Source: a virus
Virus genome (UHGV): UHGV-1684449
DNA: 21,062 nucleotides
Reading direction: 5' to 3' (one strand)
Positions 18,769-20,951 of the stretch are shown piece by piece (the first letter of the stretch is position 1; every line of letters begins with the position of its first letter). A model generated the notes under the pieces. The model made no database searches and was not told where the DNA came from. It saw only the letters and a list, made by a program, of their open reading frames with translations. Both the position numbers and the translations under genes were made by a program.

Positions 18769-19362
18769 ATGATTGCAGCCGAAAAAATCAAACAGCGAAA
18801 GCGCGACAACTCTCTTCGTGACCTCTGGAGAACACCTGATTGGCTGTTTTCTGCCATTCAACGTTATCTTGGAGTGACATTTGATGTTGACGTTGCCTGC
18901 AACAAGGACAATGCAAAGCTGCCTATTTTCATAGGCGTTGAGCGCGATGCTTTGAAATCTGAATGGGGGCAGCCAGGTACAATTGCCTTCCTCAATCCAC
19001 CCTACTCCAAAATCTCCCCCTGGATTGATGCGGCTATACGTGAGCAGGCTCGCGGAGTTACAACAGTGATGCTAATTCCTCAATCCCTCGATACAAAGTG
19101 GTATGAGCGTGCAACAGAGTATGCGAATGAGACGATTATTCTGTCTGGTGGCCGCGTTGCGTTTGTCGAGCCTGACGTCAATTTGGGTCAGGTAGAAGTA
19201 AACATCAACCCCGGTGGCAGTATGCTCGTTGTTTTTCGAGGGTTTTGTCAGGACGCTGGGCACTCTATAAGCAAGATCCCTTTGGACGTCATGAAAAGTC
19301 TGGGAGGGTATGATCCTGCGAATGTGATCAGGAAAAAAAGACCATCAAAGAAGGCTGCTTAG
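18769..19362 (+). CDS. DNA N6-adenine methyltransferase (phage Dam-type family)
   Basis: Catalytic motif FLNPPYS (NPPY) and N-terminal LWRTPDWLF, typical of small phage N6-adenine methyltransferases. Target sequence not determinable from the sequence. Confidence 0.7.
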   Translation: MIAAEKIKQRKRDNSLRDLWRTPDWLFSAIQRYLGVTFDVDVACNKDNAKLPIFIGVERDALKSEWGQPGTIAFLNPPYSKISPWIDAAIREQARGVTTVMLIPQSLDTKWYERATEYANETIILSGGRVAFVEPDVNLGQVEVNINPGGSMLVVFRGFCQDAGHSISKIPLDVMKSLGGYDPANVIRKKRPSKKAA

Positions 19363-19548
19363 TTTGCTCTGGCGTCTGTAATTAGCCTGCTTCTGTATAT
19401 ATAAATAACTACATATTAATTATTAATATACGGAAGCAGGCTGTTTTGTATCAGAGACTCCCAGACCTGAACATCACTACAGAATCCACTAGACCCCCTT
19501 CCCAGACGCTTTAAAATCGATTTTATGAACCACTTTAAGGAAACCAAC

Positions 19549-19779
19549 ATGTCATACTCGACTAATGTCGTTGCGCTCGTAGAGAGCGATTTTCTGGCCC
19601 AGGCTCGTGAAATGATGAAAGATCGTGAGCAGGCTTTCAACTTGTACGAGTGGGCAATTAAGTGCTTGCATCTTGGCGAGCATCGCGAACTTGTTGAACA
19701 GCTTTTAGGTGAGTTGATCAATGAGGTGTTTGCCTTGAATGTTCAACTACATGGTCGAGAAAATAATCAATCACAATGA
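19549..19779 (+). CDS. Hypothetical protein (76 aa)
   Basis: The track ORF starts at 19525, but the in-frame ATG at 19549 has a proper AAGG ribosome-binding site and the leader AAGGAAACCAACATG. No family recognised. Confidence 0.45.
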   Translation: MSYSTNVVALVESDFLAQAREMMKDREQAFNLYEWAIKCLHLGEHRELVEQLLGELINEVFALNVQLHGRENNQSQ

Positions 19780-20360
19780 TAGATAAGTACAAACTATTCA
19801 TAAAGTGAATTGTAAGTGCTAAGATCTGATAGTTTCCAGTCGTAGACTGGAGGCTCGACCTGATGGGTGGGGGTAAGCGTCACTGGCGTCAGGTTTAAAA
19901 AAGCTCACTACCAGCGTAGAACCGGTGCCGTATAGGTGTCGGGGAAGGGGGAACCAAAGTGAGCAGAGACAAGGGTCACTTTATGATTGTCGAGTCTGGG
20001 GTGTTTCGAGAGGTTGAATCCAGTACTCCCCTTCATAAAGTGTGGGAAGATCTCGGTTCTGGGGTGCTGTCATCCATAACTTCCCAAGTCTAAGCTGGCA
20101 GTAGACTTAGACCATAGCTTTTCAGGTTATGAAACGACCAGGTTGGTGAGGAATTTTATACTCACCTCCCTGGGAGAGTATTACCTGAAAAGACAACCTC
20201 TCACTTCGTTCGAGGTGAACTTCACTCACTTCGTTCGTTCAGTTCAGGTTTATAAAAACCTGTTCTGGGAAGTAATTTGTTTATTTTAATAATTATTAAC
20301 ACGCACGCGTGTGCGCACGCGCGAGGAAAAATCGGCGCGGCGCTTGATTCAGGAGTTTAT

Positions 20361-20951
20361 ATGACGACGAAGACACCAGCCCGATCGCAAGCAAAAACTC
20401 GCAAAAAAGACAAAAACAAAAATTCTCCCCGCACCAATCCCACAACGCCTGTCGTAGAGTTCAATCCCCAGCTTAAAACCGTGAAAATCTTTAGTGATGG
20501 CTCTTGCCTTAAAAATCCGGGTGGCCCGGGCGGTTACGGTATCGTTCTCCAGTATCGTGGTGAGGAACGCGAGTTCTCAGATGGTTTTCATAGCACCACC
20601 AATAACCGCATGGAGATGATGGGGGCACTTATCGGGCTGGAGCGTTTGAAATATCCATGCAACGTTATTTTGCACTCTGATAGCCAGTATCTGAAAAACG
20701 GCATGACACAGTGGATGAAATGGTGGAAACGCAATGGATGGATGACTTATGACAAAAAACCGGTAAAGAATGTTGATCTGTGGAAGCGTCTGGATGAGGC
20801 CGCAAGTCGACATAATGTTCGCTGGAAGTGGGTTAAAGGTCACGCCGGGCATCGTGAAAATGAAATATGTGATCGACTCGCGAAGATCGCAGCTTTTTCA
20901 GCAGCAGATATGCCTCACAAGAAAGATATTGGTTTTGTTTATAACAAATAG
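20361..20951 (+). CDS. rnhA: Ribonuclease HI
   Basis: [52 protein letters not shown] and [20 protein letters not shown] closely match E. coli RNase HI as recalled. Start placed at ATG 20361 with an AGGAG ribosome-binding site; the track's 20277 start adds an implausible leader. Confidence 0.9.

Follow-up and report, generated by a model that had tools for sequence, protein, structure and literature searches.

The region at 19780-20360 of the window (the whole 21,062-nt stretch of DNA that was analysed) raises the question of what is carried between two protein genes in a stretch that does not exhibit an ordinary protein gene of its own. The two genes that enclose the region are as follows.

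19549..19779, plus strand: 76-aa ORF, phrog_5343, with no assigned function, which always accompanies the slot studied here.
20361..20951, plus strand: rnhA, encoding RNase HI (phrog_531, E = 9e-80), with its ATG at 20361.

The original prediction had described the region as free of ORFs of at least 60 aa and dense in hairpins and direct repeats. The absence of such ORFs is borne out, as the largest are those of 44 aa (19959-20093) and 48 aa (20143-20289), and every feature named there could be located, at coordinates that differ by 0-2 nt. The direct repeat TCTGGGGTG is located at 19995-20003 and 20058-20066 (previously placed at 19994 and about 20056), and longer imperfect copies of it span 19990-20003 and 20053-20066. 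The direct repeat (C)TCACTTCGTTCG is located at 20200-20212 and 20225-20237. The hairpin GTCTAAG/CTTAGAC occupies 20088-20112, and the hairpin CAGGTTT-ATAA-AAACCTG occupies 20245-20262 and is extendable to 20240-20267. The GC-rich purine/pyrimidine stretch occupies 20301-20323 with a palindrome inside at 20306-20323. By our own arithmetic, a repeated 9-mer is expected by chance about 0.6 times in 580 nt and a repeated 13-mer about 0.003 times. The repeated 9-mer alone is therefore unremarkable. Taken together, the fold z-scores and the conservation of the region lie far outside what chance would produce.

The window belongs to an SSU5/pHCM2-like phage-plasmid and is 100% identical to pECOH89 of E. 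coli, a 111.7-kb plasmid that carries CTX-M-15. The element was identified in 687 PLSDB plasmids and 12 phage records by distant-mode blastn against phages and plasmids, and in about 74 IMG/VR contigs by a motif scan of viral contigs. It is also present in 232 of the 5,426 complete E. coli genomes (4.3%). The hosts of the relatives are Escherichia, Salmonella, Klebsiella, Enterobacter, and Cronobacter. An ordinary protein gene in the same slot of the relatives was not found, since all 687 plasmids and all 12 phages keep the element. A motif scan of species-representative genomes located the element only in Kluyvera (2) and as a truncated remnant in Buttiauxella that had been left by deletion. 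A gapped direct-repeat scan of metagenomes returned mostly unrelated repeats, and nhmmer recovered only close full-length copies. No divergent member of the family was found by any of these searches (blastn of phages and plasmids, motif scans of viral contigs and species representatives, and the metagenome repeat scan with nhmmer), so the covariation described below is limited to variation inside one tight family. Several plasmids exhibit recombination junctions at or adjoining the element. No description of the element was found in the SSU5/pHCM2 literature on non-coding RNA, origin or RNase H.

The conserved core at 19853-20275 exhibits 91-97.5% identity across the relatives from Escherichia, Salmonella, Klebsiella, Enterobacter, and Cronobacter, compared with about 75-85% for the flanking genes among the same relatives. 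When 7-14 kb were compared in windows of 200 nt, the core made up the top 7 of 128-189 windows (0.91-0.975 versus a median of 0.74-0.78). The blastn identity of the non-coding core is 88-92% versus 79-83% for the 1-kb stretch with the flanking genes. The part at 19966-20275 (about 300 nt) is 96-100% identical across genera, with predicted loops and junctions included. These comparisons show that purifying selection acts more strongly on the core than on any neighbouring gene. No ORF of at least 30 aa is common to all 61 distinct copies. Indels put the 44-aa and 48-aa ORFs out of frame in several lineages, which for the 44-aa ORF are Klebsiella, L124, L093, and L157. The suggestion of a degenerate gene remnant is not upheld, because the region is the most conserved and not the least, and no reading frame is common to the lineages.

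The features of the region are as follows.

19797..19825, plus strand: putative sigma-70 promoter, read from the sequence and the alignment.
19831..20290, plus strand: proposed non-coding RNA gene of about 445-460 nt, from conservation, covariation, the lack of an ORF, and Cyrano expression, with inferred ends.
19831..19855, plus strand: 5'-terminal hairpin, variable in sequence and conserved in structure (fold z = -3.7).
19857..19964, plus strand: 5' domain, with compensatory changes.
19966..20202, plus strand: central domain of the consensus fold, closed by 19966-19976/20196-20202.
20203..20275, plus strand: 3' domain of the consensus fold, with the helix 20203-20207/20269-20273.
20299..20349, plus strand: semi-conserved GC-rich palindromic element, from the RNA to the ribosome-binding site of rnhA.

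The fold of the plus strand has a z-score of -4.2 versus shuffles and that of the minus strand -3.1. The consensus plus-strand fold constructed from the alignment of the 61 distinct copies consists of 127 pairs in 17 helices, and 99.8% of its cells are paired. Double compensatory changes were observed at 8 pairs and in 80 cells versus 5.8 and 20.8 in shuffles, and the observed values were reached by 3/500 shuffles for pairs and by 0/500 for cells. Slid controls exhibit at most 2 pairs and 4 cells with double changes. Only 5 of the 17 consensus helices, together with the separate 5' hairpin, exhibit covariation, as the remainder shows no variation at all. The substitutions are thus shown to preserve a multi-helix RNA fold.

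The 5' hairpin has been rebuilt from unrelated sequence in four lineages (CCAGTC/GACTGG, CCGGA/TCCGG, GCTGGCAGAT/ATCTGCCAGC, and GATTTCGA/TCGAAATC). The 5' domain consists of a hairpin with a G-rich apex (19857-19895), an A-rich linker (19896-19902), and a helix (19903-19908/19959-19964) that encloses the hairpin 19922-19942. Its covariation among the 61 copies comprises A-U to G-C (12 and 11 copies), C-G to U-A (14), and U-A to C-G (18), and its G-U to A-U or G-C changes fit the plus strand. The central domain consists of the helices 19977-19986/20033-20042 and 20043-20049/20080-20086, the hairpin 20088-20112, and the nested helices 20118-20131/20179-20192 and 20138-20150/20161-20173, and a hairpin of this domain carries the conserved apical GAGAGGUUG (20008-20016). 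Covariation is exhibited there by 19979/20040 and by the hairpin 20088-20112 (U-A to C-G in 13/61, plus alternation of G-C, G-U, and A-U). The remainder of the central domain is invariant and speaks neither for nor against the fold. The segment GAGAGGTTG (20008-20016) is perfectly complementary to CAACCTCTC (20194-20202), and a 9-bp pseudoknot between them is possible. In the 3' domain, the hairpin 20208-20218/20226-20236 is built on the direct repeat CTCACTTCGTTCG (20200-20212, 20225-20237), and AGGUGA (20215-20220) can in principle pair with either UCACUU copy, which may give alternative hairpins. The same domain includes the hairpin 20239-20268. The 3' hairpin has z = -4.5 and exhibits U-A to G-C covariation in 9/61 copies.

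The putative promoter consists of a -35 hexamer TTCATA (19797-19802), a 17-nt spacer, TG (19817-19818), and a -10 hexamer TAAGAT (19820-19825). It matches the consensus at 8/12 positions, which is under the threshold of the promoter scanner. A TAnnAT hexamer (TAAGAT, TAAAAT, TAGAAT) is found at the same alignment column in every lineage despite the diverged surroundings. The E. coli, SSU5-type, and Cronobacter copies have TGn before the -10. A TTnnnA hexamer is located 17-18 nt upstream. The start site would be located at about 19831-19833. At the other end, the conserved core ends in the invariant ...CTGGGAAGTAA, which is followed by a variable U-rich tract (20276-20290). A canonical intrinsic terminator is absent, as the U-tract follows a long-range helix and not a simple hairpin. 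Part of the GC-rich element beyond it has been deleted from pHCM2, and plasmids with a replacement of rnhA have a truncated copy. The fold of the GC-rich stretch does not surpass that of shuffles (z = -1.7 and -0.6). This element is a candidate for a weak terminator, an attenuator or a protein site.

The expression of the region can be read from the phage Cyrano, which is 97-98% identical and for which strand-resolved RNA-seq profiles of its lysogen of LF82 have been published (PMC9928086, Table 1, S1 Table). The annotation CYRAN_81 (44-aa ORF) falls inside the RNA and is reported at 12-fold over the prophage background (PMC9928086 Table 1). The CYRAN_81 stretch reaches 12-14 times its two neighbours and up to about 39 times in macrophages, with log2 fpkm of 6.8-10.35 compared with 3.1-5.8 for the 76-aa ORF and 2.6-5.0 for rnhA (PMC9928086). 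Its level is similar to that of the repressor gene CYRAN_45, and rnhA is low in every condition where the RNA rises (PMC9928086). These data show that the stretch is transcribed at a repressor-like level in the lysogen and that the genes on either side are nearly silent there. The ends of the transcript, and the strand to which the counted reads belong, are inferred, not mapped. The annotation CYRAN_81, which presents the stretch as a "moron" (a gene of the prophage that the lysogen expresses) for a 44-aa protein, is a mis-annotation of the RNA.

It is highly improbable that the region is instead a DNA-level element (a protein-binding hub, an origin or a recombination site) or that it encodes a small protein such as CYRAN_81. 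The direct repeats and palindromes, the 44-aa ORF annotated in Cyrano, and the recombination junctions at or next to the element in several plasmids would agree with this explanation. However, the compensatory and G-U-compatible changes show selection on the plus-strand RNA fold, Klebsiella and other lineages have the ORFs out of frame, the 9-mer repeat is no more than chance would give, and the Buttiauxella copy is a deletion remnant and not an active site. Of the three interpretations offered by the original prediction, only that of structured non-coding RNA is retained, in view of conservation above the flanking genes, compensatory changes that are compatible with G-U pairing and with the plus strand, and the published expression. 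A regulatory hub acting at the DNA level is not retained as the main reading because the substitutions respect RNA pairing. Such a role may still be played by the promoter-proximal 19797-19830 or the GC-rich 20299-20345.

The best explanation, to which we give a probability of roughly 0.45, is that the region holds a stand-alone gene whose product, a structured non-coding RNA of about 450 nt read from the plus strand, acts in the plasmid-prophage state. The RNA would be transcribed from an extended -10 promoter of its own (19797-25), and the transcript would open with a protective 5' hairpin. Transcription would stop at the structured 3' domain and the U-tract (about 20276-90), in which case the RNA would be neither a leader of rnhA nor a DNA site.

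The relation of the RNA to rnhA bears on two other explanations. The TTG-extended reading frame of rnhA begins at 20277. Its product is a canonical RNase HI with catalytic residues and a basic N-terminal extension of roughly 40-45 aa. L011, L012, and L361 lack the gene and retain the RNA slot. CP082664 keeps the RNA without rnhA and has its next genes on the opposite strand, and CP126779 keeps the RNA without rnhA and has betT cargo next. The RNA is thus independent of rnhA, because it persists where rnhA has been replaced, and rnhA is a neighbour that is not demonstrably part of the function of the RNA. These arrangements, with opposite-strand genes or unrelated cargo next to the element in L011, L012, and L361, argue against a leader or attenuator that acts in cis on rnhA and the genes after it, in which an abundant, prematurely terminated leader would be accompanied by regulated read-through. 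The RNA has the same orientation as rnhA and ends 70 nt upstream of it, its level far above the rnhA mRNA is typical of attenuators in the off state, and the alternative hairpins on the direct repeat (20200-20237) could be a switch. However, the RNA is more conserved than rnhA, the 5' part of which is only 40-65% identical, and the spacer between the RNA and rnhA is variable. Rfam gives no riboswitch or leader match, and rnhA does not follow the RNA in any condition of the Cyrano data. A leader is thus considered improbable.

To our knowledge, ColE1 RNA II is the only well-known case in which a structured RNA of about 500 nt works together with RNase HI. It is a multi-hairpin transcript of about 550 nt in which the fold matters and which is functionally tied to RNase HI. 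The RNA described here is similar in size, is G-rich, and has an RNase HI gene directly after it, within a replication module. It may thus be a pre-primer or origin transcript whose hybrid over 20276-20349 is cut by phage or host RNase HI and primes DNA synthesis. The location within the replication and nucleotide-metabolism module, the GC skew of +0.14 overall and +0.28 in the 5' domain, the variable AT-rich tract after the RNA, and the Cyrano copy number of about 5.5 (PMC9928086) are consistent with such a transcript, and the replacement of the allele in the sister lineage would fit an incompatibility determinant. Nevertheless, the cumulative GC skew of pECOH89 has no inflection at the locus and its extremes adjoin repB, the skew of the locus ranks only 48 of 413 windows, no G-quadruplex motif is found, and the G-runs are unremarkable. 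A consensus scan, which is a weak test, gave no minus-strand promoter of RNA I type in 19831-20290, and its one nearby site on that strand (19838 to 19809) is directed away from the RNA. Plasmids that have lost rnhA and part of the GC element still carry the RNA, although the RNase HI of the host could substitute there. The plasmids also carry a RepB-type replicon already, and the presence of the RNA does not co-vary with replicon type across plasmids. The RNA is further unlike ColE1 RNA II in lacking sequence or covariance-model similarity to it. We therefore regard a pre-primer as distinctly unlikely.

The 76-aa ORF and the RNA co-occur in essentially the same 73-74 IMG/VR contigs. In a sister lineage, a homologue of this ORF with 49-51% identity is located upstream of an unrelated RNA-like element, and this divergent form of the ORF is carried by 39 plasmids. 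The plasmids pCAV1335-118 and DS-1 exhibit the same synteny with an unrelated conserved element that has z = -5.2, ends in an intrinsic terminator, and gives no Rfam match, and DS-1 keeps the slot element without rnhA. Homology between the 5' domain and the sister element was considered from the motifs GGTGGGGG..AGCG, AAAAGCTCA, and GAGGAACC, which occur in the same order. It was rejected with covariance model R1 with filters off, for which the best in-gap match scored 2.4 bits (E = 9.4).

Specificity determinants are usually exchanged by replacement with a different allele in the same slot. Within the reading of a stand-alone RNA gene, we tentatively favour, as the likeliest mechanism, that the RNA would work in trans to regulate or maintain the plasmid-prophage state. 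The grounds are that lysogens express it alongside the repressor and integrase, that it is independent of rnhA, and that a sister lineage has a different and equally structured "allele" in its slot. It would be a determinant of the immunity or compatibility type, with a logic like that of phage P1 c4, phage P4 CI, and plasmid copy-control RNAs. An antisense target was not found on the 111.7-kb plasmid, where complementarity never extends beyond 12 nt and is at chance level (E at least 2.4). In the E. coli lineage, 19995-20006 can pair perfectly over 12 nt with the leader of terS (small terminase; partner AAACACCCCAGA, -21 kcal/mol), and this pairing weakens to -13.9 kcal/mol in SSU5 and -8.8 in the Klebsiella lineage. 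The pairing appeared compensatory by eye, and permutation over genomes gave 0/2000, but it fails the energy ranking and the permutation over distinct lineage combinations (1046/5000), so that it is no better than chance. The variable patch at this match is largely explained by the RNA's own helix (alignment columns 166-204). A regulator that works by base-pairing would not usually have about 300 nt that are nearly invariant, with loops included, and this feature is more in keeping with a three-dimensional RNA-protein complex or a catalytic RNA.

An RNA-protein complex or "ornate" RNA, in which the three-dimensional shape binds or sequesters a conserved protein or machine, self-assembles or catalyses, is accordingly considered, and we judge it unlikely. 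The 96-100% identity of 19966-20275 across genera, the 17 helices with several junctions and the possible pseudoknot (20008-16/20194-202), and the lack of an antisense target on the plasmid agree with it, as do a size and prophage location like those of ROOL and GOLLD (PMC12286853). The unrelated sequence in the slot of the sister lineage would be unexpected if a conserved host partner dictated the fold. Moreover, Rfam gives no match to an RNA of RNA-protein complexes, a ribozyme or an ornate RNA, and a GGA-type or other repeated protein-binding motif is not apparent by eye. A CsrA sponge was rejected by inspection, as the approximately 8 GGA motifs (eye count) are about the number expected by chance and are not located in repeated hairpin loops.

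The covariance-model and tRNA searches proposed with the original prediction gave no match. Rfam 15, in which the families covered include C4 antisense RNA, RNAI, ROOL, GOLLD, group I/II introns, RNase P, tmRNA, 6S, CsrB, ToxI, and riboswitches, gave 0 matches at gathering thresholds over the whole window. With permissive filters over 19350-20450, only chance eukaryotic and viral models were returned (12-21 bits versus thresholds of 37-208). ARAGORN identified 0 tRNA or tmRNA genes in the window.

The RNA can also be compared with other known classes. The c4 RNA of P1/P7 and the CI RNA of P4 are encoded by phage-plasmids or satellites and are antisense RNAs made in the lysogen that hold lytic functions off, and their specificity differs between relatives. 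They are about 70-80 nt, processed from leaders, and adjoined by defined covarying target sites. The RNA resembles them in its expression in lysogeny with the repressor and in the unrelated sister-lineage "allele", but it is about 420-450 nt, has its own promoter-like element, and gives no Rfam C4 match. ROOL and GOLLD are found mainly in Firmicutes and other phyla, often beside tRNA genes, and are 580-800 nt. The RNA is similar to them in being large, multi-junction, highly conserved, borne by phages or prophages, and without known function, whereas it is restricted to SSU5-like phage-plasmids of Enterobacteriaceae, is expressed in lysogeny, and gives no covariance-model match. The order of promoter, structured RNA, leaky stop, and ribonuclease gene, with the RNA in large excess, is similar to type III toxin-antitoxin systems (ToxI/ToxN). 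However, the RNA has only two-copy dispersed direct repeats and no tandem repeats, and the downstream gene encodes RNase HI (phrog_531), not a ToxN-type toxin, and is dispensable for retention of the RNA.

A more general proposal, which we consider doubtful, is that a fixed slot of SSU5-like phage-plasmids, from the 76-aa ORF to RNase H, is reserved for a structured RNA of about 450 nt that represents an unrecognised class of lysogeny-state effector. This effector would be either a determinant of immunity or compatibility that is exchangeable and exists as at least two unrelated alleles, or a primer linked to RNase H that serves a second, RNA-primed origin of a 110-kb phage-plasmid.

The SSU5/pHCM2-like phage-plasmids are common in clinical Enterobacteriaceae, and some, such as pECOH89, carry CTX-M-15. 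On our reading, the most conserved sequence of their replication module is an RNA gene that has gone unannotated and is transcribed in the carrier state. This gene would be a concrete and easily deleted handle on plasmid maintenance, exclusion of relatives or replication start, and experiments are tractable as PhiR41_1 infects E. coli K-12. With this RNA, a candidate family joins the few large structured RNAs of bacteria that are without known function.

The window represents an SSU5/pHCM2-like phage-plasmid. Over the 1 kb around the non-coding gap, its identity is 100% with E. coli plasmid pECOH89 (NC_023916.1), which carries blaCTX-M-15, 98-98.6% with phages PhiR41_1, CMS-2020a, and Cyrano, 83% with Salmonella phage SSU5, and ~80% with Klebsiella phage-plasmids. 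The gene order is thymidylate synthase, dihydrofolate reductase, 3'-5' exonuclease, adenine methyltransferase, 76-aa ORF, 580-bp gap, and RNase HI. The gap contains a genuine, expressed, structured non-coding RNA gene (the RNA) with a probability of about 0.9.

19549-19779: 76-aa ORF (phrog_5343, function unknown)
~19831-20290, + strand: the RNA
20361-20951: RNase HI gene, rnhA (phrog_531)

The phage-plasmid RNase HI has a Lys/Arg-rich N-terminal extension of roughly 40-45 aa (20361-20495) that E. coli RnhA does not have. Among relatives, the catalytic domain is conserved, while conservation of the extension is poor (40-65% nucleotide identity). A long AT-rich palindrome (AGCCTGCTTCTGTATATATAAATAA...TATATACGGAAGCAGGCT) lies 3' of the methyltransferase gene (19378-19445), with a near-identical copy upstream of the leader of the small-terminase gene terS (pECOH89 65,585-65,640; L161:15585-15640, where L161 is part of that plasmid). 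A blastn query containing it matched 34 places in 12 phage records, and the palindrome is apparently a terminator-like element repeated between genes in the SSU5-like phage family.

All sequence features previously described for the gap were found, with coordinate offsets of 0-2 nt. There is no ORF of at least 60 aa in 19780-20360, and the region has direct repeats TCTGGGGTG (19995-20003 and 20058-20066) and CTCACTTCGTTCG (20200-20212 and 20225-20237), two hairpins (20088-20112 and 20240-20267), and a GC-rich stretch with a palindrome at 20306-20323. By simple arithmetic, ~0.6 9-mer repeats and ~0.003 13-mer repeats are expected by chance. Compared with shuffles, the + strand (z = -4.2) folds better than the - strand (z = -3.1). 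Four additional long-range inverted repeats were identified.

19977-86/20033-42: long-range inverted repeat
20008-16/20194-202: long-range inverted repeat
20076-86/20266-76: long-range inverted repeat
20118-30/20180-92: long-range inverted repeat

The gap sequence is not protein-coding. No ORF of at least 30 aa is common to all 61 distinct copies of the RNA. In the Klebsiella clade and in three further lineages, 1-nt indels move a 44-aa frame into another frame, and a 48-aa frame is disrupted by indels near 20151. A function as a DNA site or a small protein is very improbable. The degenerate remnant offered in the original prediction was rejected. No tRNA or tmRNA was found in the window by ARAGORN, and Rfam 15 gave no match for the whole window at gathering thresholds and chance matches only for the gap under permissive settings. 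The RNA is absent from Rfam 15 and from the genome annotations examined, and no account of it was found in the searched literature on SSU5 or pHCM2 with ncRNA, origin, or RNase H.

The decisive observation is the conservation of the non-coding core. Distant-mode blastn with the non-coding part alone gave 88-92% identity in Klebsiella, Salmonella, Enterobacter, Cronobacter, and Raoultella relatives, while the 1 kb including the flanking genes gave only 79-83% in these relatives. The core, delimited as 19853-20275 in a 13-sequence alignment, exhibits 90-100% identity per 50 nt (98-100% at 19984-20083 and 20183-20232) and lies between 70 variable nt on its 5' side and a variable, AT-rich spacer on its 3' side. 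In comparisons with SSU5 and three other lineages, the seven most conserved of 128-189 200-nt windows are those of the core (identity 0.91-0.975; median 0.74-0.78; best coding window 0.85-0.88).

The RNA element was found in 687 PLSDB plasmids, 12 phage records, ~74 IMG/VR contigs, and 232 of 5,426 complete E. coli genomes, with no PGAP annotation under the element. No divergent homologues were found. The species-representative genomes have only two Kluyvera copies and a truncated remnant in Buttiauxella gaviniae (NZ_LXEP01000001.1, L163:4825-5164) that matches 19955-20287 with 95.8% identity. In Buttiauxella, the 3' end of a metallophosphoesterase gene runs in frame into this copy, and LysR and MFS cargo lie after it. 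The fusion indicates a deletion, and the copy is a degraded remnant of a phage-plasmid.

RNAalifold predicted 127 pairs in 17 helices from the alignment of the 61 copies, and standard pairs form in 99.8% of cells. The comparative alignment suggested in the original prediction revealed both-side changes in 8 pairs and 80 cells, compared with 5.8 pairs and 20.8 +/- 4.2 cells in column shuffles; these values were reached by 3/500 (pairs) and 0/500 (cells) shuffles. Sliding the 3' partners by 1-3 columns as a control left at most 2 pairs and 4 cells with double changes. Covariation supports the 19857-19895 hairpin, the 19903-08/19959-64 helix, 19979/20040, the 20088-20112 hairpin, and the 3' hairpin. 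The invariant 3' half is neutral for or against the fold. Changes on one side of a pair interconvert G-C, G-U, and A-U, and only the + strand tolerates this type.

In four lineages a hairpin occupies one position directly upstream of the core, formed from an unrelated sequence in each (window 19831-19855, z = -3.7). A hexamer upstream of this hairpin occupies the same alignment column in all lineages.

19820-19825: TAnnAT hexamer (TAAGAT in the window; TAAAAT or TAGAAT elsewhere)

TGn precedes the hexamer in copies from E. coli, SSU5-type, and Cronobacter elements, and a second hexamer, TTnnnA, is found 17-18 nt upstream. Together these form a putative promoter of the RNA itself, which would start near 19831-19833; a consensus promoter scanner made no call there. 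The core terminates in invariant CTGGGAAGTAA (20265-20275), followed by a U-rich tract in most lineages. Because no canonical hairpin-plus-U terminator is present at the 3' end, we only infer its position. The putative promoter region of the E. coli lineage (19797-19827, TTCATAAAGTG...GTGCTAAGATCT) resembles a partial duplicate of RNA-internal 20032-20053, which consists of TTCATAAAGTG then GTGGGAAGATCT with a common overlapping G. The promoter-side copy has a 9-nt insertion, and the upstream sequence of other lineages is unrelated to it.

The 44-aa frame within the RNA is annotated as CYRAN_81 in Cyrano (OV696614). In the LF82 lysogen, CYRAN_81 is among the expressed prophage genes, 12-fold over the prophage median (PMC9928086 Table 1). 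The RNA-seq library is strand-resolved, since + and - strand profiles are plotted (PMC9928086).

Expression in the Cyrano lysogen as log2(fpkm+5) (PMC9928086 S1 Table)
CYRAN_81, LB: 6.8-6.9
CYRAN_81, culture medium: 9.0-9.3 and 6.9
CYRAN_81, macrophages: 8.2-9.0 and 10.3
76-aa ORF, across conditions: 3.1-5.8
rnhA, across conditions: 2.6-5.0
Putative repressor CYRAN_45, across conditions: 6.4-10.4

CYRAN_81 is 12-14-fold higher than its neighbours in LB and ~39-fold at 6 h in macrophages. In the plasmid-prophage state, the core is thus transcribed as a discrete, abundant RNA, the ends of which we infer, and it is not co-expressed with the 76-aa ORF or rnhA. Conservation, compensatory changes, and published expression thus support the structured non-coding RNA that had been proposed. 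Two "hypothetical proteins" outside the window, near the integrase and repressor genes, CYRAN_43 (OV696614 40268-40822) and CYRAN_40 (39144-39356), are expressed at 723 and 15 times the prophage background (PMC9928086 RNA-seq). Either may be another mis-annotated RNA gene or an abundant lysogen-expressed prophage gene.

The RNA is unlikely to be a cis leader of rnhA. It is intact in plasmids in which rnhA is replaced: the genes after it are on the opposite strand in CP082664, and the next gene is betT cargo in CP126779. Between the RNA and rnhA, the spacer and the GC-rich element vary, with a partial deletion in pHCM2, and the GC-rich element folds no better than shuffles. The replacement, the variable spacer, and the expression gap between the RNA and rnhA argue against a simple leader. 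CP082664, CP126779, and the Buttiauxella sequence have the junction GAGG(G)AAAAATCGCCCATYGTAATGT in common, directly 3' of the RNA (~20325), where rnhA is replaced by different cargo in the three elements. Recombination may have recurred at this point behind the RNA gene, or the junction may have been inherited.

A ColE1 RNA II-like role, as an RNase H-linked pre-primer or origin transcript, is attractive because the RNase HI gene is the neighbour, but it is doubtful, if less so than the leader. The extremes of the cumulative GC skew lie beside repB, with no inflection at the RNA locus; the RNA's own skew is +0.14 (rank 48/413 windows), and the RNA has no G-quadruplex motif and, by consensus scan, no antisense promoter within it.

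No complementarity to the RNA longer than 12 nt was found over the complete 111.7-kb plasmid (E at least 2.4). One perfect 12-nt match pairs RNA 19995-20006 (UCUGGGGUGUUU), the sole hypervariable patch within the invariant centre, with AAACACCCCAGA, 90 nt upstream of terS and directly preceding a terminator-like hairpin. Both patches vary among the 35 genomes with both loci, with G-C to A-U co-changes by eye, and the duplex weakens to -13.9 kcal/mol in SSU5 and -8.8 in Klebsiella. The cognate pairs are not the best in two of four main types, a permutation over distinct lineage combinations was not significant (1046/5000), and the site is not among the plasmid's best duplexes with the RNA. The patch variation is largely explained by the RNA's own helix, and the tempting terS-leader pairing is a candidate lead only.

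The leader of this small-terminase / "DNA-binding protein" gene (pECOH89 65,460-65,560, minus strand; L161:15460-15560) has two AAACAAGTTG repeats and a terminator-like hairpin (AGAGCGC..GCGCTCT then GTGTGTTTT) immediately before the ribosome-binding site. Such a layout points to control of the packaging operon by attenuation. The linear records of SSU5 and Cyrano start just upstream of the leader.

The tblastn search with the 76-aa ORF identified 728 plasmids, 41 more than have the RNA, and 39 of them have a homologue below 60% identity. Two were examined, K. oxytoca pCAV1335-118 and K. pneumoniae DS-1 unnamed2, which represent a sister lineage. Both plasmids keep the gene order of the window: a methyltransferase, a 75-aa ORF (49-51% identical to the 76-aa ORF), a 571- or 586-nt gap, RNase H or a replacement gene, and TerB.

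L360:2426-2996 (pCAV1335-118): gap with conserved non-coding element of ~420-520 nt
L361:2426-3011 (DS-1 unnamed2): gap with the same element

The sister gap has no similarity to the RNA by nhmmer --max, the covariance model of the RNA's 5' domain gave at best 2.4 bits inside it with filters off, and the element has no Rfam match. Between both plasmids the element is 84-93% identical per 100 nt (~85% overall), at least as conserved as the flanking genes. The element persists in the plasmid that has a replacement gene instead of RNase H; its fold reaches z = -5.2, and a clear intrinsic terminator marks its end.

Phage-plasmids of this family thus maintain a slot for a large structured RNA, which at least two unrelated sequences fill. 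Unrelated occupants in one slot are the pattern of phage immunity regions and plasmid copy-control RNAs. The pattern would be more surprising if a conserved host partner shaped the RNA, which weighs against an RNA-protein complex or "ornate" structural RNA, a reading of low probability. In our ranking, this reading precedes the pre-primer, the rnhA leader, and the DNA site or small protein in that order, and follows a trans-acting RNA, which is placed first but tentatively. The RNA would then act in trans as a regulatory or maintenance RNA of the prophage-plasmid state, of the immunity or compatibility type.
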